Shown one piece after another: positions 979 through 20,869 of a DNA stretch of 64,000 nucleotides. The notes beneath the pieces are model-generated. The model was not told where the DNA came from. It did no database searches and saw nothing but the letters and a program-made list of their open reading frames with translations. Position 1 is the stretch's first letter. The number at the start of each line of letters is the position of its first letter. The translations under genes and the position numbers were made by a program. This DNA comes from Escherichia coli. Lineage in GTDB: Bacteria > Pseudomonadota > Gammaproteobacteria > Enterobacterales > Enterobacteriaceae. The stretch is from assembly GCF_044324785.1 (NCBI RefSeq), contig NZ_CP172129.1. One strand, 5' to 3'.

Positions 979-980
979 AC

Positions 981-1248
981 ATAAACTGTAGTCAGTGAAG
1001 AGCGCTCCTTTACTGACTACAGCTTATATTAACCGGTGCAGTGAGTGGTCTGCTCACTGCAGTTTATATTCTGTTTCCTGCAGTGCTGTCTGTAGCTGAG
1101 CTGCCATCTGCCTGTCCCTTACGTAAGTGATCCCGTAACCTGATGCTGAGGCATTGCTCCCTTCATAAAACATGACTTACTCACTACAGCTTATATACAT
1201 GCTCCAGCTTATGTTATGTCTGTTCTGCTGACCACAGCTTATATAAGG
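981..1248. repeat. RepFIB iteron cluster: direct repeats with core CAGCTTATAT (cores near 1018, 1058, 1187, 1206, 1236) plus one inverted copy at 981-1000
   Basis: Repeated motif ACTACAGCTTATAT seen directly in sequence downstream of repA; 981-1000 is the reverse complement of the iteron core. Confidence 0.8.
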
Positions 1249-1262
1249 AAGCGCGTATGCCG

Positions 1263-2003
1263 TCACCTCAGGGGAGGCAGTGTACGCAGGATCTCCGCAG
1301 CATCCCCCCCGTCACCTGTGAAAGGCACTGCCAGCGTGGCAGCCATATCCAGTGCAAACACTCTGGTATAAACCTCCATCGAACGTGGATCCCTGTGACC
1401 AGCCAGTGCCTGGATGACTTTCCGGGGCTGGCGGTGATAGAGCATGTGCATGATATAGCTGTGCCGGAAGGTGTGTGGTGTGACCGGAATCGAAAAGTGT
1501 ACTCCGTCAGCTTCGGCCCGTCTGACAGCCTGCTTCAGCCAGTTGCGCATGGTTTCGTCGGTCACGGCCCATAATGGTTCACGACGACGGGGCCGGGTGG
1601 TGATCATCCAGCTTTCCATCTGCCTGACATAGCTTATATCTGTCAGCGGAACCAGGCGCACTTCATCTTTTGGCGGGCGTCCGCGTCGCGCACGCACTTT
1701 TTCGGACAGGATCCGCACAAACGGTCTTACTCCATTCAGGTCAAATGATTCCGGCGTCAGCATCCGGGCTTCGCCAATACGCATTCCGGTATTCCAGAGG
1801 GTGGCGAACAGCATATGGTGACGCTGATCCGGCATATAGAAAAGAAGGGCACTCACTTCCGGGGCCAGCAGGTAGGCCGGTGTGGCCCCCGTGGAAGTGG
1901 CCATTCTTCTCAGGGAGAGCGCTGTTGCAAAATCCACCCCCGGCGCAATGGGTAACAGGGAGACGCGTTCTGGTGAATTCTGCAGGGGAATGACATTGTT
2001 CAT
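1263..2003 (-). CDS. int: Tyrosine site-specific recombinase (phage integrase family), RepFIB-associated int
   Basis: 246-aa ORF with the C-terminal catalytic region typical of tyrosine recombinases (HTFRHSY...LAGHRD...Y). Confidence 0.8.
1625..1645. repeat. Additional isolated iteron-like copy (GACATAGCTTATATCTG) lying inside the int coding region
   Basis: Same core motif as the iteron array. Confidence 0.5.
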
Positions 2004-2685
2004 GAGTTATTTTTCACGTAGCACACGCACTGTTTATGGATACAGGTATTCTGACCTGAACGCCCGGATCCTTCCACGACAATAAATCGCAGCGCGCGGA
2101 TCCTTTTGTTTGATTATCACGCATTATTGCGGGTAAAACCAAATACGTAAAGGCGCATTTTGCCGCTGGGATCCCGTCTTAAGCCAGTCATGGTGCGGGC
2201 TGAGGGCTGGTTTACTGTTTTTGGGAGAATTGGGGTAATGCCAGGACAGGCAGAAACGGAGAAAAAATCCTGCAGACGCCCTTAAAAGACAACTGAAAAT
2301 TTCTGACTCCATATTCCTCTGGTTTCAGACTGCTTAATCACATCATCAACCTGATACATAACAAACAGATTCTGTTCACAGAATGAACAATTAAGTAAAT
2401 GGTTAGATTATGCGAAAAAGTACAGATATTTCTCACCATCGTTATTGAATAATATGTCTTCACACAAACAATATTAATATTTTGAGTGTAAGCCCTGACT
2501 CAAAGAAAGAAATGTCTGTTTTCGGAATCAAAAATATATAGTTATCAAAATACATTAATTTCAAATTTGAAATTAATGTAAAACGATTTAGTAAATGTTA
2601 TGATATTATAAATCTACTCCTCCATGTTTAGAGGAGTATTTGCAGACTGGACGCTCTTATATAGTTACTTACCTTTATACATATT

Positions 2686-3594
2686 CTAACATAAGCATTT
2701 ACCAACCTTACAGGGAACAGACCATAGTAGTTTATATTTCCATTCAGGTCTGAATGCACCGATAGAATATATCATCTTTTTATTATTATCCTGACAATAC
2801 CTTCGCGCTTTATCTATATTCAGCCACATAAGGACACTTCCCGGACTTAGTTTCATGCAATTCTCATCATTCAGAACTGCACCATTTGGAACGTCATAAT
2901 AAACATTACATGAGCTTTCAGATTTCAGTACTATATCAATAGCACACGGTTTATTATCCCAGAATAGCACATGGCCAAACATAAGTTCTCGTAAGTGAGA
3001 AATAAACATTAACAGATTATCATATTCGTAGCAAGGTAGGGTACCTCCAAACCGGGAATGAAAAAGTGATATATAAGAGCTGGATATTTCTTTATCGGAT
3101 AACTGGCTTATACACTTAATCTCTCCGCCATTCCTGATAAATCGCTGGATTTCATTTCGGCGAGTTTTTTCAAATTTAGGTGAAAAAGATTCCTTTATAA
3201 TACAATTTTGTTTTTTTCTGGCTATTTTCCATGTTGCATTGATAATATTTTGTTTATTTATAATTGATAATTTATTAGTTTTATCCGGAAAAAAACATCT
3301 TGCATGTGGGGAAAAAGGAATTAATACCTCATCAGATGAAAGAGGATAAGACCTTCTTGCCATTATCCCAATTTGTTTTCCATTGCACAGAAAATATGAG
3401 CCTTTGATATCACCATCTTTTTCATAGTGAAAAAAATCAAACTTCCAGTCATGATGTATCATAAAGTATGAAACAACATCCGGATGCATGTTTACACTAC
3501 CACCGTATTTTTCAAAAGTTTTTTTGTACGTTTCGAATGTAGATGGTTTCCAGGCCGTAATAATGCGCTTTATATTTTTAATTGACAAAGTCAT
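2686..3594 (-). CDS. mig-14: Mig-14 family protein
   Basis: 302-aa AT-rich ORF; position next to hlyF-ompT matches the ColV-plasmid mig-14 arrangement; sequence resembles the Mig-14 family as I recall it. Confidence 0.65.
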   Translation of the reverse strand: MTLSIKNIKRIITAWKPSTFETYKKTFEKYGGSVNMHPDVVSYFMIHHDWKFDFFHYEKDGDIKGSYFLCNGKQIGIMARRSYPLSSDEVLIPFSPHARCFFPDKTNKLSIINKQNIINATWKIARKKQNCIIKESFSPKFEKTRRNEIQRFIRNGGEIKCISQLSDKEISSSYISLFHSRFGGTLPCYEYDNLLMFISHLRELMFGHVLFWDNKPCAIDIVLKSESSCNVYYDVPNGAVLNDENCMKLSPGSVLMWLNIDKARRYCQDNNKKMIYSIGAFRPEWKYKLLWSVPCKVGKCLC

Positions 3595-3656
3595 ATCCTC
3601 GGCGTTTTTATATATTATGAGTGCAACACCAACAATAATTCTGATTATGATAAATA

Positions 3657-4766
3657 TTATTTAAAATCAACTTCCATTTGTTGTTGAATTGAAAGGTGTT
3701 TTGTCGTTTCTATACAGTATTTAATATAATCAGTAAACTTTGGCGGTTTAGGCATTCCGATACTCAGTAGCTTGTCGTTACTGAAACAAACATTGAGCAT
3801 ACTGAACGCTCCATATAAACGAATGGCTTTTAACATAAGGCGTTCGTTACAGGGACCAAAAATATTTTTAAAATCATGACGGCTCATTGCCAGTATGTCA
3901 TAACTGACTTTAGTATATCTGTCTCCAACAGGATCACAGTTCAAAGCACGGGCTACAGCTTCGTCAATAGCAGAGAACGTCACACTACTTTCTTTACCTG
4001 CTGATATATGAACAATCTCACCATTAATTAACGAGCTTTCAAGCAACATTAGCAATGCATCAGCACAATAATCTACAGGGATAACATCTATTTTATCATC
4101 CAGAGAGCACATAAATTTTTGCAACATTAACCCCATTCTGAATACCCAGAAAATACTGGTTGAAGGTAAGCACCCTAAACGACTGTGGCCAACAATAATT
4201 GATGGTCGGGCAACCAACAAAGGTAAATCAGGACACTGCTTACGCATCAGATATTCTATTGTTGCTTTTGAATGCGTATACTCCACTAAATGTTCACCTG
4301 TTTCTGATGAAGCAGACTCTTCCTTAACTAGCGACCCCGTATGAGGTGTACAAGACATAGCAGTACCAACATGAAGGAAGCGTTTCAGTCCTGCCACTTT
4401 TGCCATTCTTCTTGCAAAAGCAAGTGTACCTGTAACATTCACATTCCATATAAAAGGATTATTACCAAAAGAAGCTATAGCCGCACAGTTTATAACATGA
4501 GTGACTTCATCAAGACGAGGATCCATGAGAAAGGCTTCCGGATTATTTAGATCCCCAGGCAAGATGTTATCATTAGTTAATGCATGCAACCTTTCCTCAC
4601 AAACATTAAATTTACGCATATTTTCTTTAATTCTTTCCAGTCCCGCTTGTGGAGTAGGTGCTCGTACTAAAAGTAGCAAATTTATATTATTACAGTTATC
4701 CAGCAGCTTATCCAGGACCGCGCCACCAAGAAATCCTGTTGCACCTGTAAGTAATAATAATTTCAT
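3657..4766 (-). CDS. hlyF: HlyF, SDR-family NAD(P)-dependent epimerase/dehydratase-like protein
   Basis: 369-aa ORF with N-terminal Rossmann motif TGATGFLG; matches ColV-plasmid HlyF. Confidence 0.85.
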   Translation of the reverse strand: MKLLLLTGATGFLGGAVLDKLLDNCNNINLLLLVRAPTPQAGLERIKENMRKFNVCEERLHALTNDNILPGDLNNPEAFLMDPRLDEVTHVINCAAIASFGNNPFIWNVNVTGTLAFARRMAKVAGLKRFLHVGTAMSCTPHTGSLVKEESASSETGEHLVEYTHSKATIEYLMRKQCPDLPLLVARPSIIVGHSRLGCLPSTSIFWVFRMGLMLQKFMCSLDDKIDVIPVDYCADALLMLLESSLINGEIVHISAGKESSVTFSAIDEAVARALNCDPVGDRYTKVSYDILAMSRHDFKNIFGPCNERLMLKAIRLYGAFSMLNVCFSNDKLLSIGMPKPPKFTDYIKYCIETTKHLSIQQQMEVDFK

Positions 4767-5198
4767 ATCTAACCTCTTTTGTTTTCATGTGATCATTATA
4801 AAAATAAATTATCTTACATAAACAATGATTAAACAAAATCAAGAGAGATTAAATGTAAAAACAATGTTTATTTTTATACGGCAGAATCCTTCAGGTTATT
4901 GCGTGTGTTTTTATTGGATGGTCTTCTTATTATTGACGAGTAATAGAATTATAATAAAGTTCATATTGTTAACATCGCTTATCAATTATTTTTATGTCGA
5001 TAACACTGTGTCGTTATGCATGAAGAGTGGCAGGGCAGCATCTTTAAAAATACAAGAGTTAACAGAAACACTTTTATCGTTGAGCACATATACCCTCCAC
5101 ATATTATAAAAAATCAAAAGACCACCATCAGAAGTGCTGGCCTTTTGTTTATCATATTTAAAGTGTCATGAAAAAGTTAAAAACAGGCATGCTTCAGG

Positions 5199-6158
5199 TT
5201 AAAAATAATACTTCAGACCAGCTGTGGTCATAAAGTTATAGCTTTCAATGCCTGCACCATTTTTGGTGTGATCAGATATATTCAAATTTCTGGAGTACAG
5301 AGAAGTATCACCTTTCTTATTAGTAATACGGTTCCATGTTCCTTCGACATAAACTTTAGCTGCAGGTGTAATATAATAACCAGCATGTAGTGAGACAGAG
5401 TAATAGTTCTGATTATTTACATCGCTACGATAGGTGATCCTTTTCTCAGGGTTGTAATGCTCATCATTATCCGATGCCTTCACCCATCCGCTATATTTGA
5501 AACTCCCCCCGAACTCAAAGCTATCATACCGATAATTACCGGTTAACCCTATATAGGGCATTTTAAAGTGTTGTTTGTAGCCTATAGCTCTTTCACCATC
5601 TGGAAATGATCCCGTTTCATCCCGGAAGCCTCCCTCACTACTATAGATATAAGAGCCTCCTTTTGCTGTAAAGCTATAACGATTTTCCTGGTAACCAGCC
5701 ATAAGACCTAACTGATAGTCTGGTTGATTCAGGAGCCATCCCTTAATATTCAGGTCGAATTCATTAGCAAAATTTAGACGGGTATTCGGATGTTTACTCT
5801 CATCAGTCCAGGTTCCGGGATTGCTCGTATCCAGCCAGTCCCTGTCCACCATATTGCCTCCACGACCAGCTAATGTTGTCCACCCTGAGGCACCGACAGA
5901 TACTCTGGGTAACAGATCCCAGTTAAATGCCCCCTTGACAATTGGCGCATTACTGTATTTCCAGTCCAGCTGGCTGGCTTTGCGCCCTTTTTCTTCAGGC
6001 AGATAAACCCGTTCTTTGGCCTTGCCACTTAAAGTGCCAAAATCAATCTCCGTACTGATTTTCTCCGGTGTAAAAGAAAGCCCAGTATCAGAAGCCAGTG
6101 CAGCAAACGCTACAGGAGCTGAGAGTGCAGTAGCAAGAATCTTTAAGTACATAGACAA
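5199..6158 (-). CDS. ompT: Plasmid-borne omptin outer-membrane protease (OmpT-like)
   Basis: 319-aa ORF with signal peptide and strong similarity to the omptin family (…NMVDRDWLDTSNPGTWTDES…AGLKYYF). Confidence 0.85.
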   Translation of the reverse strand: MSMYLKILATALSAPVAFAALASDTGLSFTPEKISTEIDFGTLSGKAKERVYLPEEKGRKASQLDWKYSNAPIVKGAFNWDLLPRVSVGASGWTTLAGRGGNMVDRDWLDTSNPGTWTDESKHPNTRLNFANEFDLNIKGWLLNQPDYQLGLMAGYQENRYSFTAKGGSYIYSSEGGFRDETGSFPDGERAIGYKQHFKMPYIGLTGNYRYDSFEFGGSFKYSGWVKASDNDEHYNPEKRITYRSDVNNQNYYSVSLHAGYYITPAAKVYVEGTWNRITNKKGDTSLYSRNLNISDHTKNGAGIESYNFMTTAGLKYYF

Positions 6159-6246
6159 GTTAACTCCATTCCACTCGTTTGTTTTTGATAAATATTTTTT
6201 TATTTACTCGTAGTAGTCAACTGAAAAATGCTGTTTTGTTTAACGT

Positions 6247-6645
6247 TTGTTTACAATGTGGCCACATGTCGCTTTATTTATTCCCTTTTATGTCAGAATA
6301 TCAGGGGAGTCAGTCAAACCCGGTATGATTACTGCCCCGGTCATCCATGTTCCAGAAAATATCAGGGCATACAGGGCGCTGGTAACTGCGAATAAGGCCC
6401 TGGTCGGACACTTTATGCCGGGAACGTCTGTAACGTGGAAACCGGTACCTTCTTCCTGGGGTTATTTTGTTAACTCTTATCTAAAGGGAGACAAAATGGC
6501 CAAATCCTGCGATTATGAAGCAATCAGGGTCTTTATTAGCGTTAATGTCGGCAAATATACCAATAACGCCATTACAGTTAATTATTCAGATAGCGTTTGT
6601 GCGACAAGACATTACCATTCGACGAAAATAAACTCAGGTGGTTGA
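6247..6645 (+). CDS. Hypothetical protein, divergent from ompT
   Basis: 132-aa ORF with no recognisable family; low coding confidence. Confidence 0.25.
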   Translation: MFTMWPHVALFIPFYVRISGESVKPGMITAPVIHVPENIRAYRALVTANKALVGHFMPGTSVTWKPVPSSWGYFVNSYLKGDKMAKSCDYEAIRVFISVNVGKYTNNAITVNYSDSVCATRHYHSTKINSGG

Positions 6646-7439
6646 TATCAGAAATCAACCGTGGCTCCACCTACAAAAAAAGTTGCTGGTTTATAAATCC
6701 CTCCTTTCTGATTAATAAGAAAACTAATAACATATGAGTGTGATTACTTGTTCAGATAAGTTAATTATCTTAGTGATTGATATTTATTTTGTTTCAGTGA
6801 AAATGATGCTTTTATTAGAAAATTTATAAATACCAAGTCGGTGGTGTTTATTAGTGTAATGGAGGGGAGTGCGTAAATCGTTCATGTAACACTTCCTTCC
6901 AATAATACTTTATAAATCAATAGATGTATGATTACTTATTTCCTGAAATATCATATATATTGCTATATTTCTTAACGAGATATTCTTATTTTATTGATAA
7001 TTGCATCTCTTTTATTTAATGTAAAGCTTTCTTATTAATCTTCTAATGTATTGCAAAATGGTAGATGCTGAGTAATCAACAGACTTGTATGTAAAGTCAA
7101 GATTAACGTTGCTAAAGCACGCATCAATTTTCTGATAAAAGGATGGGGTTGTTTTTTTCGATAAAAAAAATTCTTGTCTAACCACTGGTGAAATAAGATT
7201 ATTATTACCCCGAATTAATACTGAGCCTAACAATAGAATACAAAAAAAACAAAATGCTTTAAATAAGGGGAGCACTATAAGTTATCCTCTTTACTTTATG
7301 CTTACCAACTCATTTATGTTACTTTATAACATAACCCATCTTGCGTTGTAAACAGACTCGTTTTAGTTCCATGCACCTTTTGAGATCGTGACCAAATAAT
7401 GGCGTTAGTGATGTTCTTCCAGTGTCATATGGTTAAGTA

Positions 7440-7712
7440 GTTGATATGGCGTTCACTGTTATATTCTGACAACCAGTTTGCCGCCAGTTCCCGCTTTTCA
7501 TCCAGCGTTCTGAACAGACAAAAACCGAGTATTTTTGTTCGGTATGTCCGGTTAAAACTCTCGATAAAAGCGTTCTGCGCCAACTTACCTGATTGGGTAA
7601 TCTCCAGTTTTACTACATGTTTTTCTGCGCATTACGTCCGTGTTGGATAAAAAAAATCCTGGCCATAATCTATGCGAATCATAGCTGGATAGACATGGTT
7701 TTCCGCAATCCT
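7440..7712 (-). pseudogene. C-terminal fragment of an IS3-family transposase OrfB, cut by the IS629 insertion
   Basis: Minus-strand translation gives …AFIESFNRTYRT…NWLSEYNSERH…, a typical IS3-family OrfB C-terminus; abuts the IS629 left inverted repeat. Confidence 0.5.
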
Positions 7713-7766
7713 TGAACCGCCCCGGGAATCCTGGAGACTAAACTCCCTGAGAAAGAGGTAAACAGG

Positions 7767-8093
7767 ATGACTAAAAATACTCGTTTTTCCCCCGAAGTCC
7801 GTCAGAGGGCGATTCGTATGGTTCTGGAAAGTCAGGGCGAATATGACTCACAGTGGGCGGCAATTTGTTCCATTGCCCCAAAGATTGGCTGTACACCGGA
7901 GACTCTGCGTGTCTGGGTACGCCAGCATGAGCGGGATACCGGAGGCGGTGATGGCGGGCTCACCACCGCTGAACGTCAGCGTCTGAAAGAGCTGGAACGT
8001 GAAAATCGTGAACTGCGCCGCAGTAACGATATCCTTCGCCAGGCTTCCGCTTATTTTGCGAAGGCGGAGTTCGACCGCCTCTGGAAAAAATGA
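7767..8093 (+). CDS. IS629 transposase OrfA
   Basis: 108-aa HTH protein [19 protein letters not shown]… matching IS629/IS1203 OrfA. Confidence 0.85.
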
Positions 8094-8980
8094 TGCCACT
8101 GCTGGATAAGCTGCGTGAGCAGTACGGGGTCGGACCGCTATGCAGCGAACTGCATATTGCCCCGTCAACGTATTACCACTGTCAGCAACAGCGACATCAT
8201 CCGGATAAACGCAGTGCCCGTGCGCAGCGCGATGACTGGCTGAAGAAAGAGATACAGCGCGTATACGATGAAAATCACAAGGTATACGGTGTGCGTAAAG
8301 TCTGGCGTCAGTTGTTACGGGAAGGTATCAGAGTGGCCAGATGCACTGTGGCACGTCTCATGGCGGTTATGGGACTTGCCGGTGTTCTCCGTGGTAAAAA
8401 GGTCCGTACGACCATCAGCCGGAAAGCCGTTGTCGCAGGCGACCGCGTAAACCGTCAGTTCGTGGCAGAACGTCCTGACCAGTTGTGGGTGGCTGATTCT
8501 ACTTACGTCAGCACATGGCAGGGGGTCGTCTATGTGGCGTTCATCATTGATGTGTTTGCCGGATACATCGTGGGGTGGCGGGTCTCATCGTCTATGGAAA
8601 CGACATTCGTGCTGGATGCTCTGGAGCAGGCGTTATGGGCCCGTCGACCGTCCGGCACAGTCCATCACAGTGATAAAGGTTCTCAGTATGTATCGTTGGC
8701 CTACACACAGCGGCTTAAGGAAGCCGGATTACTGGCATCAACAGGAAGTACAGGCGACTCGTATGACAACGCGATGGCGGAGAGCATCAATGGCCTTTAC
8801 AAAGCGGAGGTAATACACCGTAAGAGCTGGAAAAACCGTGCAGAAGTGGAACTGGCCACACTCACGTGGGTGGACTGGTATAACAATCGACGATTGCTGG
8901 AAAGGCTGGGCCATACTCCTCCGGCAGAAGCAGAAAAAGCTTATTATGCTTCCATCGGAAACGATGATCTGGCAGCCTGA
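8090..8980 (+). CDS. IS629 transposase OrfB (DDE integrase-core domain)
   Basis: 296-aa ORF overlapping orfA by 4 bp; DDE region …[10 protein letters not shown]…[15 protein letters not shown]…. Confidence 0.85.
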
Positions 8981-9117
8981 GTTCACAGATAAAACACTCT
9001 CCAGGAAACCCGGGGCGGTTCACCTACAGAGTACCGCTACCACTTGTGAAGCTGGCAGATTCAGATTGTTTTCAATCGACAACGCCTCATAGTTAAAGTC
9101 ATCAACGACATTGAACG

Positions 9118-9835
<718 letters not shown>

Positions 9836-10412
9836 TTGATGGAGATATAAATGGCTCACTTTTTATCGGTTGTTGACGATACGTTTATCAAGTATACATG
9901 AAAATTTCTTCATACCAGCTATATGAGACGTTAAGACTAATAATCTTACTCCCAAAATGACTATGTTGTTGCAGTTTGGTTTATTGACTCTTGTCTATAG
10001 TTCACCGAATGCCAAGATGAGGGAGCGAGGAACTTTACTGTCTACGCCTCTCTTCCTGGTTACAAAGACAAGCGTAAAACTCACCATCCATTAGAACTAA
10101 AGGCACTTTCCTGAGCAGAGTTTTCATCTGCAAGATAAAAGCTATTTTACAGCCGTAAAGTCCAGTGAAACGAAAGAGAGGTTAGTGAATTAATTACTTG
10201 ATGTATTAAAGTATAATGGGCGTAGATAACACCTTAATACGAAATCTTGTCAGGCTTTCCCGGTAATTAGTAATACTGTTGAAACAAAGCGAGAGGGGGT
10301 TAGCCCAATTTACGCAAATAAATAATAATCTTGATTATGATTAATTCCAAATAAGTATATTTTTCCAGTAGATGCTGGGCATTAACTAAGAAAACCCAGA
10401 ATACCACTTTCA

Positions 10413-11621
10413 TTGTTATGGAAAACATGGACAATGTTAATGAAATATATTTCTCACCGCGCCATCATTTGTACCTTGACACTGTTGATCATTATTATCA
10501 CCGTTTTGTTCACCTTTCTGAGAAGCTCTGATGTGCCAGAATATATTACTGCCCCGGTGCGCAAAGGCGATATAGAAAATTCTGTTCTGGCGACAGGCCG
10601 TATTGATGCAATTGAACGGGTAAACGTAGGGGCACAGGTATCAGGGCAATTAAAATCACTGAAAGTGAAACAGGGCGACCATGTGACTAAAGGGCAGTTG
10701 ATTGCCGAAATTGACGACCTACCTCAGTGTAACGATTTGCGTAATGCCGAAGCTGCACTCAACGAAGTGAAAGCAGAACTTCAATCCAAGCAGGCGCTCC
10801 TGAAACAGGCTGAACTGCGTTTTAAACGCCAGCTCCGGATGCTAAGAGAAAATGCCAGCTCACACGAAGATTTTGAGTCTGCGGAGGCAATGCTTGCGAC
10901 CACTCGCGCTGAATTACATTCTCTGAATGCCAAACTGGTCCAGGCACAGATAGAAGTAGATAAGAAAAAGCTTGCCCTTGAATATACGCGAGTCGTAGCG
11001 CCAATGGATGGAATTGTTATTGCCATTGTCACTCAGCAAGGGCAAACCGTTAACTCAAACCAGAGTGCCCCAACAATTATTAAACTCGCTCGTCTGGATG
11101 TCATGACCATTAAAGCACAGATCTCCGAGGCTGATATAACCCGTATTTCTGTGGGGCAAAAAGCCCGCTTCTCTATCTTCTCCGAACCGGACAAGCACTA
11201 CAGCGCAACACTGCGTGCCGTTGAACTGGCACCAGAATCGGTAATGAAAGATGACTCTCTCGCCAGCAACACTTCAGCATCAGGCTCCGGAACTTCAAAT
11301 GCGTCCGTTTATTACAATGCTCTATTCGATGTGCCTAACCCAGAAAATCGACTTCGTATTGCCATGACTGCTCAGGTTACCCTGATTACTGATGAAGCCC
11401 AAAATACACTGCTGGTACCCATTCAGGCAGTGCACAGAAATGAGGGGAAGAAGCAACAGGTCCTGGTGCTGCCAGCAGATGGCAGGCTGGAACCCCGGAA
11501 TGTGAAAACTGGTATCACGAACAGCGTGGATATTCAGATCCTCGAAGGTTTAAATGTCGGAGAAAATGTCGTGCTGTCGCTGCCGGATAAGAAAGAGCCC
11601 GAAGAAAGGATTATGCTGTGA
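10413..11621 (+). CDS. etsA: EtsA, MacA-like periplasmic adaptor (HlyD/membrane-fusion family) of an ABC efflux system
   Basis: 402-aa ORF with N-terminal TM segment and coiled-coil adaptor architecture; first gene of a three-gene operon with 4-bp overlap to etsB. Confidence 0.8.
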   Translation: MLWKTWTMLMKYISHRAIICTLTLLIIIITVLFTFLRSSDVPEYITAPVRKGDIENSVLATGRIDAIERVNVGAQVSGQLKSLKVKQGDHVTKGQLIAEIDDLPQCNDLRNAEAALNEVKAELQSKQALLKQAELRFKRQLRMLRENASSHEDFESAEAMLATTRAELHSLNAKLVQAQIEVDKKKLALEYTRVVAPMDGIVIAIVTQQGQTVNSNQSAPTIIKLARLDVMTIKAQISEADITRISVGQKARFSIFSEPDKHYSATLRAVELAPESVMKDDSLASNTSASGSGTSNASVYYNALFDVPNPENRLRIAMTAQVTLITDEAQNTLLVPIQAVHRNEGKKQQVLVLPADGRLEPRNVKTGITNSVDIQILEGLNVGENVVLSLPDKKEPEERIML

Positions 11622-13558
11622 AAAAACTTATTGAGTTAAAAGGGGTTAGCCGAACTTATGGCAACGGAGATCAAACGCGGACCGTCCTGAAAAATGTCGA
11701 TTTGACAATCGTTGCTGGAGAAATGGTGGCAATCATTGGAGTCTCTGGCTCAGGCAAATCAACCTTAATGAACATAATGGGTTGCCTTGACGTACCCAAT
11801 AGAGGTGATTACTACATCGACGGACAAAATGCCGCCTGTCTTTCACCCGATGAGCTGGCTAGAGTGCGCCGGGAACACATTGGCTTTATATTCCAGCGCT
11901 ACCATTTGATACCTGATCTTAGCGCACTTGGTAACGTGGAGATCCCGGCCATTTACGCCAACAGCGAACGCGACAGCCGTCGGCAACGTGCAACGGCGTT
12001 GCTGGGCAGACTGGGACTGGAAGGACGTGAGCATCATAAACCTTGCGAACTTTCAGGCGGTCAGCAGCAACGCGTCAGTATTGCCCGAGCACTGATCAAC
12101 GGTGGAAAGATAATTTTGGCGGATGAGCCAACTGGTGCTCTGGATTCGCAATCCGGGCAAGAAGTGTTAGCCATTCTGAATGAACTTAATCGACGTGGTC
12201 ATACTGTAGTAATGGTGACCCACGATATGAAGGTCGCCCGGCACGCAAAGCGAATCATTGAGCTGTGTGATGGCGAAATCATCGCTGATAGTGGAGGTTG
12301 CGTATCTGCGACGGAAACACTACCAAAAACCAACAGAATCCGGCAAAGCTATTGGAAAACACTGCTCGATCGAACGCGTGAATCGATGCAAATGGCGCTA
12401 AAAGCGATGAAGACGCATCGCTTACGCACCACGCTTACCATGATCGGGATTGTTTTTGGTATCGCCTCCGTTGTCACTGTTGTGGCATTGGGTGAAGGAG
12501 CCAGGCAAGAAACACTGGAAGAGATTAAAAGTCTGGGGACAAACGTGGTCAGCATTTATCCCGGGCAGGATTTGTTCGATGACAGCATTGAGAGTATTAG
12601 AACATTGGTACCTGCTGACGCAAATGCACTGGCGAAGCAAGGGTTTATCGATAGCGTCAGCCCGGAAGTTAGCGCTTCAGACAACATTCGTTTTCTGGGT
12701 AAATCTGCGATAGCGTCCATTAACGGCGTTGGGCGGGAACATTTCCGGGTAAAAGGTATTGAGTTGTTGCAAGGGACTACTTTTAGAGACGATCGCAACG
12801 CTCTACAGGAAGTTATTATCGATGAGAATACTCGTAAGGCCATTTTCGACAACACAGGGTTACAGGCTCTGGGGCAAATAGTCTTTCTTGGTTCTGTACC
12901 AGCACGAGTGGTTGGCATCGCTAAAAGTAACAACCGTAGTGATGCATCAAATCGCATTACTGTGTGGATGCCTTACAGCACGGTGATGTACCGTATTGTG
13001 GGTAAACCAGTTCTGACCGGTATTAGCGTCAGGCTAAAAGACAATGTGGATAACGAGGCTGCAATCAGCGCTATCTCCCAACTATTAACCCGGCGTCACG
13101 GCATAAAAGACTTCCAGCTTTATAACTTTGAACAAATAAGAAAGTCTATCGAACACACCTCAATGACCTTCAGTATTTTAATTCTTATGGTCGCATGTAT
13201 CTCACTAATGATCGGCAGTATCGGGGTGATGAACATCATGTTGATTTCTGTAACGGAACGAACTCATGAAATTGGCGTACGAATGGCGGTTGGCGCGAGA
13301 CGCAGCGACATTATGCAACAGTTTATTATTGAGGCCGTATTGGTTTGCCTGATTGGTGGCGCACTCGGTATTGCACTGTCGTATATCACAGGTGCGCTCT
13401 TTAACGCTCTGGCGGACGGGATATTCGCAGCTATATATTCGTGGCAGGCTGCTGTTGCTGCATTTTTTTGCTCAACCTTAATCGGCATAATCTTCGGGTA
13501 TCTCCCAGCCCGCAAGGCAGCAAGGATGGACCCGGTTATTTCACTGGCCAGCGAATAA
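11618..13558 (+). CDS. etsB: EtsB, MacB-like ABC transporter (N-terminal ATPase fused to permease)
   Basis: 646-aa ORF with Walker A GVSGSGKST, ABC signature LSGGQQQR and C-terminal FtsX-like permease region. Confidence 0.85.
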   Translation: MKKLIELKGVSRTYGNGDQTRTVLKNVDLTIVAGEMVAIIGVSGSGKSTLMNIMGCLDVPNRGDYYIDGQNAACLSPDELARVRREHIGFIFQRYHLIPDLSALGNVEIPAIYANSERDSRRQRATALLGRLGLEGREHHKPCELSGGQQQRVSIARALINGGKIILADEPTGALDSQSGQEVLAILNELNRRGHTVVMVTHDMKVARHAKRIIELCDGEIIADSGGCVSATETLPKTNRIRQSYWKTLLDRTRESMQMALKAMKTHRLRTTLTMIGIVFGIASVVTVVALGEGARQETLEEIKSLGTNVVSIYPGQDLFDDSIESIRTLVPADANALAKQGFIDSVSPEVSASDNIRFLGKSAIASINGVGREHFRVKGIELLQGTTFRDDRNALQEVIIDENTRKAIFDNTGLQALGQIVFLGSVPARVVGIAKSNNRSDASNRITVWMPYSTVMYRIVGKPVLTGISVRLKDNVDNEAAISAISQLLTRRHGIKDFQLYNFEQIRKSIEHTSMTFSILILMVACISLMIGSIGVMNIMLISVTERTHEIGVRMAVGARRSDIMQQFIIEAVLVCLIGGALGIALSYITGALFNALADGIFAAIYSWQAAVAAFFCSTLIGIIFGYLPARKAARMDPVISLASE

Positions 13559-13561
13559 TAT

Positions 13562-14932
13562 ATGAAAATTTTATCATCGTTGACTTTATGCCTTATCACC
13601 GCACTCTGTTCAGGTTGCACAAACGTGCTGAAAAGTGACTATCGCGCTCCCGAAGTGAACTATCCCATCAACTGGACCAAGGGCGATGTGGACGGAAATA
13701 CATCCCCGTTTGACTGGGAAGAATTTAACGATCCTAATCTCGATAACTGGCTTCACCTGGTGATGACAAGTAATAACGACATAGCTATAGCTGCACTGCG
13801 GATACATCGGGCGCAGCTGGATGCGGAAAGAACAGGTATCACCAATACTCCTGCACTAAAGGCGGCACTGAGTATGGACGGAAAAAAACAGCTGAATAAC
13901 TCGTCCGGCTGGGCAAAAAGCGGTTCTGCCAGCCTTGGCACCAGCTATGAGCTGGATCTCTGGGGAAAAATTGCCCGTCAGCGTGATGTTGCTGAGTGGG
14001 CAGTCCATGCCAGTGAAGAAGATTTTCGCTCCGCGCGCCTGATGCTGCTTTCAGAGGCCAGCAATAATTACTGGCGTATCGGTTTTGTAAATCAACAAAT
14101 TACCACCCTCCAGCAGAGTATTGACTATGCAAAAGAGACGCTGCGTCTGGCCGAGGTTCGCTATCGTGCAGGAAATATCTCGTCGCTGGATGTGATTGAC
14201 GCGCAGCAAAACCTGCTCACGCAAGAGAACCAGCTTACAGGGCTACAACGAGAACATTCACAGCTACTCAATCAGCAGGCCGTTTTGCTCGGCACCGTGC
14301 CCGGTTGCCAGATAGTCGAGCCCACAACGCTGCCAAAAGGAAGCCTGCCTAAGGTCAATGCGAATATTCCTGCCAGCATACTGATGCGCCGGCCTGACAT
14401 AAGTGCTAAAGAGTGGCAGTTGCGTGAGGCGCTAGCTACGGTTGATATCAAGCGTAGCGAATATTACCCCACCTTCAACCTGACAGGCGCTTTGGGTACC
14501 AGCAGCGCTTCGCTACTGGCATTACTGCATAATCCGGTCGGTTCCGTAGGCGCTAACCTGACGCTACCGTTCCTGGAGTGGCGACAGCGGGACATAGAGG
14601 TAAAAATTGCCCGTAACGATTACGAACAGCGAGTGCTGGAGTTTAAACAGCTACTTTATAAGGCAATGAGCAGTATAGAGGACGCGCTTTCATTTCGTAA
14701 CCAGTTGCTGCTTCAGGAGACAAGACTCAGGGAAGAACTGGAACTTGCACGTAAGTCAGAGTGGTTAAACGAAGTTCGTTACCGGCATGGTGCAGTACGT
14801 ATTTCATTCTGGCTTGATGCTCAGGAAAAACGTCGTCAGGCGGAGCTGCGACTGGATGAAAACCGCTTCAATCAGTTGCAGAATCTAGCAAAAATTTATC
14901 TTGAGTTTGGCGGGGCATCAACCTTTCCTTAA
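13562..14932 (+). CDS. etsC: EtsC, TolC-family outer-membrane efflux protein
   Basis: 456-aa ORF with lipoprotein-like signal (…LCSGC…) and outer-membrane factor repeats. Confidence 0.8.
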   Translation: MKILSSLTLCLITALCSGCTNVLKSDYRAPEVNYPINWTKGDVDGNTSPFDWEEFNDPNLDNWLHLVMTSNNDIAIAALRIHRAQLDAERTGITNTPALKAALSMDGKKQLNNSSGWAKSGSASLGTSYELDLWGKIARQRDVAEWAVHASEEDFRSARLMLLSEASNNYWRIGFVNQQITTLQQSIDYAKETLRLAEVRYRAGNISSLDVIDAQQNLLTQENQLTGLQREHSQLLNQQAVLLGTVPGCQIVEPTTLPKGSLPKVNANIPASILMRRPDISAKEWQLREALATVDIKRSEYYPTFNLTGALGTSSASLLALLHNPVGSVGANLTLPFLEWRQRDIEVKIARNDYEQRVLEFKQLLYKAMSSIEDALSFRNQLLLQETRLREELELARKSEWLNEVRYRHGAVRISFWLDAQEKRRQAELRLDENRFNQLQNLAKIYLEFGGASTFP

Positions 14933-15254
14933 GTCTAATTGGGGACAACCAGGAGCAATAAGGAGTGAAAAATAGCCACAGCTGAAAACACCATAGCCAT
15001 TGACATTTGAGCTTTACCTGCTCTTGAAAACAAAAAATCACTGTTAAGCGCAATGCTATTCACTTCAGCAGAGCAGTATTGCGTGTCACGAGCATGTTTA
15101 CCATTCTGTGTAAATATCTTTTCTTAAAAGTGATCATCAAAGCAGTCATCAAACTCGATAAATATCCACCGGCATAGCGTAATGCCGAGCAATTAAGGAT
15201 CAATTGACCGCTCCTTAAACTGCGGCACTATAACGGCTTCTACAACAGGGAGCC

Positions 15255-15633
15255 GTTTTCTTGTGCATAGAAAACCCCCAGCTAGGCTGGGGGTTCCGGA
15301 AAGCTTTCAGCTTTGAGCCAGTTATTAAAACCCCTTTTGATTTGTTAAAACACCTTGCGGTCTGGCAACTGCAAGTGTCAAACAAGAAATCAAAAGGGGG
15401 TCCCAATGGGGAACGAAAAGAGCTTAGCGCACACCCGATGGAACTGTAAATATCACATAGTATTTGCGCCAAAATACCGAAGACAGGTGTTCTACAGAGA
15501 GAAGCGTAGAGCAATAGGCTGTATTTTGAGAAAGCTGTGTGAGTGGAAAAGTGTACGGATTCTGGAAGCTGAATGCTGTGCAGATCATATCCATATGCTA
15601 CAATGTTTGTCAAAGCTCAGTGAAAATGTCTAA
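15255..15633 (+). mobile_element. IS200 remnant: left-end hairpin plus the first ~75 codons of tnpA (15406-15633), 3' truncated
   Basis: Hairpin CCCCCAGCTAGGCTGGGGG followed by an ORF MGNEKSLAHTRWNCKYHIVFAPKYRR… matching IS200 TnpA, which diverges after …ADHIHML. Confidence 0.75.
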
Positions 15634-15728
15634 TCACTGGCTCATTATAAATGTCCATATATTGAAAAGGCCGCTGCGAAAATCCCTCCCGCAGCGGCCT
15701 CTTTAGCATAACGTCATTATGCGAACCA

Positions 15729-16670
15729 TCACTTAATGTTCTTCTCGCATTTTAAGAGAAATAGTAAATTTGTAGCAGTAAGATGAAGCATATAGCTTAC
15801 CAATTCTTCCGGAACCTCTTTAATATCAGCTCCTTGCCCATGACCTGCATTTTTGTTTCTGATGGTTGGAATTCCTGTTTCCAGCATTGTTTTCAGACTT
15901 GTGAACTGGCTTTGTAAATATGCCGGAATTAAATTTTGACTTAAACAGCTATTTATTAGTTTTGATGCTGTATCATTAGGACTATATTTCCAGTTATTCT
16001 TATCATGTATTGCTTTCATTATACTTTCAAATGATTTCAGACAATCATTTAGACATTCTTTATAACGCTTATGCCTGTAATGCTCATGCGCAGCAAGGAA
16101 TTCATCATTGGCGCCTTCAAACAAGGGTTCTCCACTTAAAAGAATCAGGGTTGGCTTTACGACATCAGCATGAATCAATTGAGAGTCTATCCTTATTATC
16201 TCTTCAGATTCAAACTGATAACCAACCCCATGTTCTCTAAACCTTTCATTTAGTTCAATAACTGCATCTCCAGGACTTTGACTTGTTATGTCTTTGAATT
16301 CATAATGGTTTTTCGCAACGTGGCTCACTAGTATCTGGAAGCATATTTCTATGAAATCTAGGCATTTCTCTGTATTTCTCTCTTTAAGGAAAAAGTCGAC
16401 AAGAGCGTCAAAGTCATTCTTTGCAAATTCCTTCAAAGAAAAAACACCATATTCCTTAGAAAGTATCTCATGGATATATGCATATACTTTGTCAGCTTCA
16501 TTTCTATACGATGTGTAGCGTTCATTAGAAGAGGGGAAGCCGATAGAATCAGTTATTATTTTAATTATTTGCACCCTGAGTGCATGTGGAATATTGTTAT
16601 ATTGATATACGTCATTTACTTCGCCACGAATTTTTCTTTGTCTCTTAGAATAAATATTAATAATTGCCAT
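15729..16670 (-). CDS. AbiJ-like protein with a C-terminal HEPN-type motif; candidate abortive-infection/defence gene
   Basis: 313-aa AT-rich ORF; C-terminal R-x5-H motif (IRNKNAGHG) typical of HEPN RNase domains; sits between IS remnants. Confidence 0.5.
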   Translation of the reverse strand: MAIINIYSKRQRKIRGEVNDVYQYNNIPHALRVQIIKIITDSIGFPSSNERYTSYRNEADKVYAYIHEILSKEYGVFSLKEFAKNDFDALVDFFLKERNTEKCLDFIEICFQILVSHVAKNHYEFKDITSQSPGDAVIELNERFREHGVGYQFESEEIIRIDSQLIHADVVKPTLILLSGEPLFEGANDEFLAAHEHYRHKRYKECLNDCLKSFESIMKAIHDKNNWKYSPNDTASKLINSCLSQNLIPAYLQSQFTSLKTMLETGIPTIRNKNAGHGQGADIKEVPEELVSYMLHLTATNLLFLLKCEKNIK

Positions 16671-16904
16671 GAAATAGCCTCAAGATTTTTTTACATGCTG
16701 TTCTGTGATACTTGCTGTTTGGCTCTTTGCACCGCGAAGCGGTTCGGGGTTCTGTGACACCCGAATTTTACCTCGGTTTCCTTTGTATATAATATCATTG
16801 AAGTTATTTGCATTTCTCAGAAATCTTCTCTGGCTTTGATTGCAATAGCCGAAAGATAGCGCACACATCGCCGTTGGTCAGTTAGTACGAGGTTTCCGCC
16901 AAGT

Positions 16905-18294
16905 TCACCTTTTACCAAAGATGGCCTCAGAGCTTCCCTGAAGCTTTATCATGGCTTCAAGTAGGTCATCTTCGTTCAGTGAGCGCTGAGATTTGTTGAT
17001 GCTAGGGGCGTGCCGTCTGCGGGAAGGCTCATCACCAGAACAAGGTAACGATTGTGAGCGATTATTGTCCCGTTTTCTCTGGACCTGACGGGCAACATCC
17101 AACACATGGCCAAGTCTCTTGTTATCTACAATGGCGACGGGATCAACCTCAGAAAGCCGGTCATAGGTGGAGTAGGGCAGCAGCACGCCATTTAGTCGCA
17201 GCTCCTTATGTCCGTCAGGATAATGCCAGACATCAATATACTTGCCGATGGCTCTTCGACTGTACTCGTTGTCCTCAATCAGATAGAGCATTTTATCGTA
17301 TTGTACAGTCAGATTTTTTGATACCCGGCGAGGCTCTCGCTAGGTAAATTCTGCATCAAGGTCATCGTCTAATGCCTGCGGCCGGTGCGCGTTAAAATCA
17401 TGCAAGGGTTCTTTGGCAAAGCGCCGGTTATAATCCTTCTGCAAATGCATTGGCCGCTTCTATTGTACAGATCCCCTTAAGCCTGAGCTCCTTAACGAGT
17501 CGGTCCTGAAGTGTCAAATGAGCACGTTCAACGCGGCCTTTTGCCTGGCTGGTTTCAGCACACAAAGGAGTAATATTAAGGCAGCGCATGGCCCTGGCAA
17601 ACTGGGTTTCGCCGGGGCCGGTGGTGGCGTGCTTATTATTGACTCTGAATACGCTGGCTTTATCGCTGTAGAGGATCATCGGTTTACCGTATTTCTCGAT
17701 ATAGCCACGTGTAGCTTCAAAATAGGTAAATGTGGACTCAGATTTCACAAACAGCAGGTGCATCAGGCGACTGGTGGCATCGTCAACATAGACCAGGGCA
17801 GAACAGGGTCGACCCCGGTTTTCAAACCAGTGGTGGTCGCAGCCATCAATTTGTATCAGCTCGCCAGTACAAGGACGCCGGTAACGAGGCTGATGAATTT
17901 TCGGTGCGCGTTGTCTGCGGGGAATCCAGAGTCCGGCCTTTATCATGAGACGTCGGATGGTTTCCTTTCCAAGGACCAGACCGTGAACTTCCTCCAGCTT
18001 TTCCCGCGCTAGCGTGGGGCCAAAATCACGGTAGTGCTCCCGGATTATACTGAGTGCCTGATCTGTCAGTGACGCTGGCAACAGACGGTTACCAGTGCGG
18101 CCACGACTCTGGTTGTTCATGCCAAGCGGCCCATACTGGCGATAACGTTTGAGCAGACGGCTGCAATGACGTGGCGTGATGCCCAGCATTTCGGCAGCCT
18201 GTCCAGGACGGATATTGCGATCGATGACATCCTGAAGGATTTTGAGGCGATTGATTTCTTTCACGGTGAACATTCCGGCGTCATTTATAGCCAT
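16905..18294 (-). pseudogene. DDE transposase (HTH plus integrase-core rve domain, IS481/ISNCY-like), split into two ORFs
   Basis: ORF 17428-18294 carries the HTH and DDE core (…LIQIDGCDHHWF…YSDKASVF…); ORF 16905-17291 is the C-terminal continuation in another frame. Confidence 0.55.
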
Positions 18295-18589
18295 AGAAAA
18301 CTCCTCATCAGGAAAAAGTGAGTCGTTGTCTAGACATAGGGATCTGAGAAACTATAGCCTGGACATTCCTAATGAGCCACAAATAGACATTAGCATTGAG
18401 CCTCTACAATGTTTGTGCGCACAATCTATCTTATGTTAAATAACATTGAATATTAACTTACTTCATGAAGCTTACTGCTTCTATTTCCACTTCTTTTTCT
18501 TATTAATCGCTCCCCTAATCCACGCATTCATCTGCTCTACAGGCTCTAAAATATTTTTTCTGAGTACTGAGCACAAACTGCTCCATAAA

Positions 18590-18800
18590 AAACAGACCAC
18601 AAGTTTGGGCATGATACTGATGTAGTCACGTTTTATTGTTTTCATGAAGCTCTCTGCTATTCCATTACTCACCGGACTCCGCACCGCCGTGTTCTTCGAT
18701 TTAAGTCCCAACATCCGAGCGAACTGGCGTGTTTCATTAACCCGGTAGTCAGAGTCAGCGGTCGAAAGACCTCCCAGGTAGCTACTCTGCATACCCACTA
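18590..18800 (-). mobile_element. IS2 fragment (3' part of insD)
   Basis: Minus-strand translation …[45 protein letters not shown]… matches IS2 InsD; DNA near-identical to 21510-21700. Confidence 0.7.
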
Positions 18801-18930: not shown

Positions 18931-20124
18931 TCAGGACAGGCGGGTAACTTTCTGTGGCCATGGATCAGGGAATACTCCACCCGACATCCACCACTGAATT
19001 TCTTCTTCAGTCAACAAGCAAAGGGATAAGGCATGTGTAAAATCATTAACTTCAGTGGCATTGCCAATGATAGTCAACTGACAGCAGCGATCGCCAAATC
19101 GCCCAGAGGCTGTGTCGATGTGTCGCTGTAGCGCTGAACGTTCTTCACGAGTTAAATTATTGTCAGTATGTTCCAGTACTCCAGCTTTCCAGTAGCCAAT
19201 GAGCGCCAGACTGATGCTTCCTGCTGACTGATTCCAGAGCAGGGCAAGATCATCTCTCCCGGGGAGCCAAAAAAAACCTTTACTGCGATAAACGCCCATG
19301 CCCATAAAGCGGTGACAGGTATCCCATAATCTTTGCGGATGGAATGGCCTGTCGTCCCTGATGACGCGCCATATAAGTTCCTCATTGTTGCACGGAGTAT
19401 CCATGTTTCCTACAAGTGCTTCCAGTTCACTGATGAGTAACTCAACACGGTCAAAATTGTAGTCCGGGATCGCCAGTAATGTGCTCAGTTCAATATTTCC
19501 CCATGATACCGCGAGCACATCCACGGAGGGGTTAAGTGGGTGTATGGCTTTTGCCACAGCGGAGATAATGTCAAAGGGCAGGCGGTCATTTCTGGTCAGC
19601 AGCAGCCTGTTGCAGAACATGATTTGCTCGGCCAGCAAATTCTCCAGGCCGCGTTTGTTATGCCGGAGATTTTCCTGAAGAGTGGGGATCAGTTTTTTCC
19701 CATCATTGTAATCTTCATGGAGCATGACAGTATCAACGAGTGTTAAAAACGCCTTCAGGCGTACACGTGAATGGCGACGCAGGTATTTGACCAGAGGAAG
19801 CGGATGACTGCTTCCGGAGGTTTCAATCAGCATCACATCCGGCTTGTTGTGATCAAGCAGGTGGTTAATTGCGAGATCCATCTTTTTGAGGCCTGCGGGG
19901 CTGCTGATGCTGTCTGCGGTGATACTTACGAAATTATTGTCTTTTGCATCTACAATATCTGTGTTGGCGATCAGCACGCCGTCCACATCCAGTTCGCTCA
20001 TGTCATTGACTATGACAGAGACTGAAAGCTGTTTTTCGTGTGCCTGTATGAGCAGGTTTTTCAGCAGAGTGGTTTTCCCTGCGCCGAGGAAGCCATTGAG
20101 AATGATGACAGATGTTGTTTCCAT
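18931..20124 (-). CDS. CobW/COG0523-family G3E GTPase (putative metallochaperone)
   Basis: P-loop GFLGAGKTT near the N-terminus (start taken at METTSVIILNG…) plus a CobW-like C-terminal domain; the 435-aa ORF in the track has an N-terminal extension unlikely to be translated. Confidence 0.65.
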   Translation of the reverse strand: METTSVIILNGFLGAGKTTLLKNLLIQAHEKQLSVSVIVNDMSELDVDGVLIANTDIVDAKDNNFVSITADSISSPAGLKKMDLAINHLLDHNKPDVMLIETSGSSHPLPLVKYLRRHSRVRLKAFLTLVDTVMLHEDYNDGKKLIPTLQENLRHNKRGLENLLAEQIMFCNRLLLTRNDRLPFDIISAVAKAIHPLNPSVDVLAVSWGNIELSTLLAIPDYNFDRVELLISELEALVGNMDTPCNNEELIWRVIRDDRPFHPQRLWDTCHRFMGMGVYRSKGFFWLPGRDDLALLWNQSAGSISLALIGYWKAGVLEHTDNNLTREERSALQRHIDTASGRFGDRCCQLTIIGNATEVNDFTHALSLCLLTEEEIQWWMSGGVFPDPWPQKVTRLS

Positions 20125-20869
20125 ATCAGCAGTACACCAGTTAGTTAGCGAGGAAGGCGCTTGGTGGTACAAAGAGCATCCGGATTGAATCGCATAACGT
20201 CGACGGGAGTTGTTGTCGTTTTTCCTGTGAGGTCTCAACCTGCCACAGAACGCACCGGACTTATTGGTATTTAGTCTCCATCAGCATAATTATCACCATT
20301 TTTATCTCCGGGGGAAGATTTGTTCTGAACAGGAGTGGGAGGTGTGACCTCCTGAAAGTAATTACAGATTGCTAGTTGTTGTATTTTTATTCGAATATGT
20401 CTCTTCGTATCAGTGATAGCACCTAGATAAAGTATATTCCGGGAGCGTTATCTGTTCTAGATATCAGAGAGTCAGTCATTTGTAAAAAAGAGAGCTGCAT
20501 CATTCTATTTTTCCTGTCTATTCACCCTGTTGTCGTATCTAAAAGACATCCGTTCCGAGGATGTCGGGCACCCGTTCTGTACTAAGATACATAGCTTTTG
20601 GGTCTGCACTATTTGGAACCGACAGAAGTCTGTCTGTGATATCCGCATTTTTCTGTGTGCGATATATTCCGAAAAACTTCAAACCACTTAAAAGAGGTGT
20701 TTCCGGAGGATAAGTTCGACCAGGGAATAGTGTTTCCTGGTAAGTGTGGCGGAGCCAGTTCACCAGGAGTATCTTTCTTATCCAGTTATACTGGATTTTA
20801 TTAGATGATCACCCTACCCTGCAGCAGTACGCTGACGGTGTTTTTTTGGGAGAACCATTATGAATAACG

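Follow-up and report, generated by a model that had tools for sequence, protein, structure and literature searches.

We examined a stretch of 64,000 nucleotides (the window) from Escherichia coli contig NZ_CP172129.1 (assembly GCF_044324785.1), and in particular one gene within it that a preliminary description, made from the letters of the DNA, had singled out as an AbiJ-like HEPN gene and a candidate single-gene phage-defence system. The window is DNA of an IncFIB/FIC ColV-type plasmid, of which it makes up the first 64 kb, and the same coordinates apply in NZ_CP033091.2 (E. coli ATCC 11775). The annotated order of genes around the locus is mig-14, a hlyF-like short-chain dehydrogenase/reductase gene, ompT(p), etsABC, the AbiJ-type gene, a CobW/ZigA-like GTPase gene, iss and iroBCDEN.

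The gene itself is a complete coding sequence with an ATG start at 15729..16670 on the minus strand, and its 313-amino-acid product (RefSeq WP_000974762.1) belongs to the STM4504/CBY_0614 family, with an AbiJ-NTD4 domain followed by a HEPN domain that is named Abi_C or DUF7014. The coordinates, length and start codon first reported for this open reading frame hold, and so does its AT-richness: the fraction of G+C is 0.345 in the gene and 0.489 in the window as a whole, with a profile that falls to 0.35-0.37 precisely across the gene. PHROG 20794, to which PHROG assigns no function, covers the whole length of the protein.

The locus is an intact, self-contained expression unit with its own ribosome-binding site and terminator. 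Direct reading of the sequence reveals a GAGG ribosome-binding site 7 nt 5' of the ATG (16678..16681, minus strand). Approximately 26 nt past the stop codon lies an intrinsic terminator (15661..15703, minus strand) consisting of a 17-bp G+C-rich stem, a 5-nt loop and UUUUC. The hairpin folds at -29.1 kcal/mol (z -5.6), none of 200 shuffled sequences was equally stable, and it was also detected as an inverted repeat; a consensus terminator scan left it unlisted. Given that the terminator is placed between the gene and the remnant of an IS200 insertion sequence (IS), the AT-rich cassette seems to have brought its own terminator.

Family membership and the predicted ribonuclease site

The N-terminal part of the protein (residues 5-174; 16149..16658, minus strand) is an alpha+beta AbiJ_NTD4 domain, presumed to be a sensor or regulatory module, and matched Pfam PF18863 over model positions 1-150 of 152 (E 2.6e-24). 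The C-terminal part (residues 182-312; 15735..16127, minus strand) is a HEPN domain with helices at residues 182-199, 203-224, 250-265 and 288-311, an insert at 235-244 between the second and third helix, and a loop before the last. Our direct Pfam scan assigned it to DUF7014 (PF22809.1, E 8.8e-63), whereas precomputed assignments from another Pfam release gave PF14355 (Abi_C) together with PF18863, both for the cluster of 99%-identical proteins (1304 member sequences) and for all of the best 120 homologues. The precomputed PF14355.13 hits are unmarked, which means E<=1e-5. Thus, two Pfam releases split the family differently, and the name of the C-terminal domain depends on the release. As a side observation, one RefSeq record calls a 144-nt remnant a "DUF7014 domain-containing protein".

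Over nearly its full length (model positions 1-280 of 281) the protein matched the NCBIfam model NF046078, the STM4504/CBY_0614 family, with 431.7 bits, where the cut-off is 150. The prototype of AbiJ-NTD4 is CBY_0614 of Clostridium butyricum, in which this domain is fused to an AbiJ HEPN domain, as Anantharaman et al. reported in 2013 (PMC3710099). Since CBY_0614 gives the NCBIfam family its name, the family is that of the published prototype. The RefSeq name of the product is "STM4504/CBY_0614 family protein", for which newer records have "abortive infection family protein". Consequently, the AbiJ-type architecture that was first proposed is borne out by profile searches, but the novelty implied at the time is not: the family, along with its two-domain architecture and its predicted role, has been in print since 2013 and is reflected in the names used by Pfam, NCBIfam and RefSeq, and the very same protein is already described and bears this annotation in hundreds of records.

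All three sequence signatures of catalytic HEPN domains, namely Rx4-6H, a polar residue (N, D or H) following the R, and an upstream E-x3-[KR] (PMC3710099), are present in the protein. The R-x5-H motif, R271-N272-K-N-A-G-H277, lies in the loop before the last helix (15840..15860, minus strand), within the string I-R-N-K-N-A-G-H-G at residues 270-278, and the acidic second signature is E215-x3-K219 (16014..16028, minus strand). Relatives were gathered as clusters at 50% identity (2634 at E<=1e-3, of which 887 at E<=1e-30), and 87 diverse sequences with 36-73% identity to the query were aligned. R271, N272, H277 and G278 are each conserved in 86 of these 87, E215 in every one, and K219 in 83 with R in a further three. 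Moreover, R-[polar]-x4-H-G is kept in 131 out of 137 full-length cluster representatives; among the other six, three have R and H at altered spacing, one has only the following G changed, and two are without the R. These residues (R271, N272, H277 and E215-x3-K219) are predicted, from their sequence signatures, to form a metal-independent HEPN endoribonuclease site.

The motif had been put forward as a hallmark of HEPN ribonucleases (RNases), and that reading needs to be qualified. R271-x5-H277 is indeed present and nearly invariant, but a bare R-x4-6-H occurs at chance level, with an average of 1.47 motifs when this protein is shuffled and a probability of 0.79 of finding at least one. The protein contains a second one, R160-x6-H167. 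The R-x5-H motif therefore carries weight because it is conserved and placed in a HEPN fold, and not by its mere presence. The second motif lies in a conserved block of the N-terminal domain, IIRVDSxxxHxEVVKP, in which H167 is invariant; together with the many other invariant polar residues of the domain, this hints at a ligand-binding or even catalytic site, and not at a variable sensor of phage proteins.

An AlphaFold model built from the 87-sequence alignment had a mean predicted local distance difference test (pLDDT) score of 90.6. In this model the C-terminal domain adopts a four-helix up-down bundle, helices 2 and 3 being separated by an insert, which would make it a member of the HEPN fold. 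When the model was compared with known structures, solved HEPN domains ranked first. HEPN effectors of defence and toxin systems came next, namely AbiA (10.1), LsoA (9.1), HepT toxins (8.4-8.9), Csm6 (7.7-7.9), HepS (7.5) and RnlA (7.3), and the top five Foldseek matches were the same HEPN domains, with weak E-values. A PDB sequence search with the protein and the 87-sequence profile gave chance-level matches only, so there is no solved family member that is detectable by sequence. Taken together, the protein is almost certainly a HEPN protein of the AbiJ/Abi_C class, and the initial recognition of an AbiJ-like HEPN gene was correct in the light of profile matches, predicted fold and conservation.

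Flanks, carriers and genomic contexts

The gene had been described as lying between an IS200 remnant and a disrupted transposase, and this is what we found. On one side, the IS200 remnant (15273..15633, plus strand) consists of the 5' untranslated region (UTR) RNA STnc490 and a tnpA reduced to its first half. The TnpA fragment of the IS200/IS605 type (15355-15633, plus strand) matches only model positions 2-62 of 126 in NF033573. STnc490, the Hfq-binding IS200 5'UTR RNA (Rfam RF01405; 15273-15396, plus strand), is full-length and scores 146 bits against a gathering score of 56; it is complete although the tnpA behind it breaks off about halfway. Immediately ahead of it, at 15230-15266, there is a weak, sub-threshold match to ctRNA_p42d (27 bits). 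On the other side lies an ISNCY-family transposase (NF033594) disrupted into two out-of-frame pieces (16905..18294, minus strand). The piece at 17428-18294 (minus strand) matches NF033594 with 382 bits over model positions 1-270 of 368, and for the piece at 16905-17291 no family match of its own was found.

Further along, the CobW/ZigA-like GTPase gene (18931-20238, minus strand) stands isolated amid IS fragments, with an IS2 TnpB-like piece at 18481-18798, and reaches 199.7 bits with the ZigA model, far below the 600-bit cut-off. In the study of plasmid pS88 it is the "putative GTPase" pS88137, without induction in serum or urine (PMC3438092). Quantitative reverse-transcription PCR in the same study found two conserved hypothetical open reading frames between the GTPase gene and etsC, pS88142 and pS88143, to be uninduced by iron depletion, serum or urine (PMC3438092); one of them can be assigned to the AbiJ-type gene by position only.

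The preliminary description did not place the gene in the usual ColV set, and on this point it was wrong. The allele is present in 318 plasmids of PLSDB, at >=99% identity in 316 and essentially full-length in 313, and the carriers include pS88 (NC_011747), pAPEC-O1-ColBM (NC_009837) and chicken-associated ColV plasmids of Salmonella. Their hosts are E. coli (288), Salmonella (18), Klebsiella (10) and Shigella (2). Almost all of these plasmids are conjugative. With etsC present in 403 PLSDB plasmids (380 at >=99% identity), the gene is found in about four fifths of etsC-bearing plasmids. Thus, it is a regular passenger of ColV virulence plasmids, in a conserved slot between etsABC and iss. Among complete E. 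coli genomes a match occurs in 398 out of 5426 (∼7%), near-full-length in 377, and the matching places are on plasmids in 388 cases and on the chromosome in 45.

Disrupted alleles are rare. They comprise an IS1B insertion that results in separate "STM4504" and "AbiJ-NTD4 domain" reading frames, a frameshifted copy in two pieces, truncations, a 364-amino-acid protein in which residues 97-313 are fused to an IS helix-turn-helix protein, and a C-terminal fragment in Klebsiella (records with such alleles include NZ_CP134371.1, 15730-17448, as well as OR902841.1 and CP128786.1).

Outside the ColV plasmids, homologues at 57-70% identity are solitary throughout, and no neighbour recurs across seven contexts. 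In Salmonella, an integrated filamentous (Inovirus-type) prophage, which also encodes Zot, G2P/Phage_CRI, a secretin and a helix-turn-helix repressor, has a homologue of 61% identity as its last gene. In one Salmonella metagenome scaffold (1-16930) this prophage is duplicated in tandem, with the gene occurring twice ∼9.4 kb apart, and such duplication may explain E. coli records with several matching places. On chromosome 2 of Vibrio cholerae, a 59%-identical homologue is a superintegron cassette among toxin-antitoxin and acetyltransferase cassettes; one V. cholerae copy adjoins a cassette encoding DUF4145, which is another HEPN family. In Enterobacteriaceae the gene forms a one-gene islet next to a tyrosine integrase downstream of proA, once adjoining a YobI-type ATPase gene. 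The homologue in Citrobacter lies at the end of a tailed prophage, a chromosomal one in E. coli adjoins an IS-like gene, and that of Shewanella is an isolated insert between housekeeping genes. Relatives also occur in phage-collection records and small plasmids, and the family extends to free-living Shewanella, Halomonas, Zymomonas and Clostridium. The gene is a single-gene module spread by mobile elements, in agreement with the earlier claim of isolated cargo, which now extends to a solitary mobile gene in seven different contexts.

Candidate partners at the locus were considered and rejected. A 62-amino-acid open reading frame just upstream (16680-16868, minus strand) has no PHROG match, is unannotated in RefSeq and is absent from the other contexts. 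A search for a type III RNA antitoxin revealed no tandem repeat array at the locus, and the only strong Rfam match was the IS200 5'UTR RNA. A two-component toxin-antitoxin module is likewise not supported, as the neighbours differ in all seven contexts and no antitoxin-like RNA was found.

A proposed role in defence and its alternatives

We consider the product of the gene to be probably a one-protein immune effector of the abortive-infection type, within the AbiJ class, and, with comparable assurance, we would expect its function to be defence by an infection-triggered RNase. According to this hypothesis the RNase would be kept inactive in the uninfected cell, either by the N-terminal domain or by a monomeric state. 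Through its N-terminal domain the protein would sense a cue given by an invading phage or other element, whereupon the HEPN domains could pair to create a composite active site, and the resulting dimer would cut cellular RNA, phage RNA or both. Translation would then halt and the infection abort, at the cost of arrest or death of the infected cell, an outcome that would protect sister cells together with the ColV plasmid. RNase activity, dimer-dependent activation, N-terminal autoinhibition, the trigger and the anti-phage phenotype are all suggested by analogy with what is known of HEPN and Abi systems. The 2013 proposal regarded the N-terminal domains as sensors or antitoxins and the HEPN domain as a metal-independent suicide or growth-arrest RNase (PMC3710099). 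Two related Abi_C proteins confer phage resistance in experiments: lactococcal AbiJ (PMC11381338; PMC13064643) and Taranis (bioRxiv 10.1101/2024.07.02.601686). Solitary mobile cargo is, in addition, the usual signature of a defence gene, and the contexts described above therefore support the defence reading.

However, this reading should be taken with some caution, as several observations weigh against it. The experimental support for the class comes solely from relatives with other N-terminal domains, and in the literature on STM4504, CBY_0614, DUF7014, AbiJ_NTD4, PDC-S32 and Abi_C we found no experiment on any AbiJ-NTD4 protein. Our direct Pfam scan gave no Abi_C match for the C-terminal domain even at E<=10. 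The defence-system database PADLOC includes an AbiJ model. Against PADLOC-DB v2 the sole match of the protein was the candidate PDC-S32, a partial match in which residues 11-226 align with model positions 12-211 of 285 (E 4e-9), and the C-terminal domain alone had no match at E<=10. The catalytic loop at residues 270-275 has low pLDDT and is the sole poorly defined part of the structural model. A structural search with the N-terminal domain returned no informative relative, and this domain contains unusually many invariant polar residues for a sensor of phage proteins (R10, Y24, Q34, N141, R143, D162, S163 and H167). A consensus scan for sigma-70-like promoters on the gene strand found none in the 230 bp that separate the start codon from the ISNCY fragment (16671-16904), and the gene may be transcribed from a non-consensus promoter or by read-through from the IS fragment. 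Finally, the ColV copies are nearly clonal, with 99-100% identity, so that their intactness says little on selection upon the plasmid.

Some of these observations bear on an alternative that we regard as unlikely, in which the same HEPN effector is directed at other mobile elements (incoming plasmids, filamentous or temperate phages, satellites), and serves competition between elements rather than classical defence against lytic phages. Every carrier is mobile, be it a ColV plasmid, an Inovirus prophage, an integron cassette, an integrase islet or a prophage end. The high conservation of the N-terminal domain is more in keeping with a conserved cue, for instance a nucleotide or a form of nucleic acid, than with a phage protein that evolves fast. 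The characterized Abi_C relatives, on the other hand, were found and measured as anti-phage systems.

The near-identity of the ColV copies, together with the decayed IS200 and ISNCY elements on both sides, is also what one would expect of a functionless hitch-hiker that is intact merely because the plasmid lineage is young and there has been no time for decay. Consistent with this are the occasional disrupted alleles (IS1 insertion, frameshift, truncations), the roughly one fifth of etsC-bearing plasmids that are without the gene (318 vs 403 records), and the two pS88 reading frames, mapped here by position only, that showed no induction in serum, urine or low iron (PMC3438092). Set against these, 313 of the 318 plasmid copies are full-length, the ribosome-binding site, the terminator and all catalytic residues are intact, and there is clear constraint at the level of the family over thousands of clusters. 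We find a hitch-hiker improbable.

A role in stabilizing the ColV plasmid, as an addiction (post-segregational killing) toxin or a classical toxin-antitoxin toxin, would fit a large low-copy plasmid, and the HEPN toxins of HepT-MntA and RnlAB modules are among the structural matches; yet one stable polypeptide alone is unable to cause post-segregational killing, no conserved gene adjoins in seven independent contexts, the 62-amino-acid upstream frame is without a family match and absent elsewhere, and neither a repeat array nor an Rfam match fits a type III RNA antitoxin, which makes such a role very unlikely. The same low probability applies to a non-catalytic HEPN protein that regulates by binding RNA or a partner, or to a virulence effector that is secreted, considering that the catalytic R, N, H and E show hardly any variation whereas non-catalytic HEPN families are without them, that the effector proposal, which we reject, has its basis in a single in-silico list whose entry is a prediction and itself annotates the protein as cytoplasmic, and that members of the family in free-living Shewanella, Halomonas, Zymomonas and Clostridium speak against a role directed at a host.

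The infection-triggered RNase defence is thus the interpretation that we favor. A bolder version, which we offer as a speculation with rather poor odds, is that the ColV AbiJ-NTD4/HEPN protein is an active immune gene product shaping the infection by phages or rival elements of ColV-carrying avian pathogenic E. coli (APEC), extraintestinal pathogenic E. coli (ExPEC) and Salmonella Kentucky, and that its N-terminal domain represents a new type of sensor whose bound cue would be a conserved small molecule or nucleic acid and not a phage protein. In extraintestinal E. coli of birds and humans, the principal virulence plasmids are those of the ColV type, which have also spread to Salmonella and Klebsiella. 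If the defence hypothesis is true, these plasmids would carry a phage barrier relevant to phage therapy and to biocontrol in poultry, and the gene would provide a first experimental handle on the AbiJ-NTD4 subfamily. Searches of the ColV, APEC and ExPEC literature combined with AbiJ retrieved no paper that discusses the gene, which is listed merely as a hypothetical protein; its place as a predicted defence resident of the conserved virulence region is absent from the ColV literature searched, as is any functional test. The gene is an ordinary member of a known family, and as such a reasonable target for bench work rather than a surprise.

Comparison with known systems

The solved HEPN domains that resemble the model, i.e. 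the C-terminal HEPN domain of AbiA (8oz7), LsoA/RnlA, HepT-MntA, Csm6/Csx1 and HepS (9oik), share 7-12% identity with the ColV protein and none of them has an AbiJ-NTD4 domain. The sensors or regulators of those HEPN toxins are a reverse transcriptase, the Dmd/RnlB or MNT antitoxins, or a CARF domain. PDC-S32 displays weak similarity to the N-terminal part and no match over the HEPN domain, and as PDC-S32 is itself a mere candidate, the match adds no functional information.

AbiJ of Lactococcus lactis (Abi-859) is likewise a plasmid-borne single gene, and its C-terminal domain is of the Pfam family Abi_C, to which the precomputed assignments, but not our direct scan, also allot that of the ColV protein. 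This Pfam family was built on the C-terminus of Abi-859 and is classed as HEPN with a conserved Rx4-6H (bioRxiv 10.1101/2024.07.02.601686; PMC3710099). AbiJ-family proteins vary in their N-terminal domains (NTD1-5), and that of the ColV protein is NTD4. The anti-phage activity of lactococcal AbiJ is measured, with escape mutations in the single-stranded-DNA-annealing protein of the phage (PMC11381338; PMC13064643), whereas that of the ColV protein is predicted. Taranis, a cassette of the V. cholerae superintegron, is another single-gene Abi_C (HEPN) module carried as mobile cargo and is reported to be anti-phage (bioRxiv 10.1101/2024.07.02.601686). Like Taranis, the V. cholerae homologue that is 59% identical to the ColV protein is a cassette of the superintegron. 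In Taranis the N-terminus shows a distant relationship to AbiJ_NTD5, however, in contrast to NTD4 in the ColV protein, and Taranis thus represents a different subfamily whose phenotype is not simply transferable.

The closest comparison is with the STM4504/CBY_0614 family (NF046078), with which the ColV protein shares the two-domain architecture, the length, R-N-x4-H and E-x3-K, and of which it is a member. The only point that is specific to the gene described here is its carrier, namely a slot between etsABC and iss on the ColV/ColBM IncF virulence plasmids.
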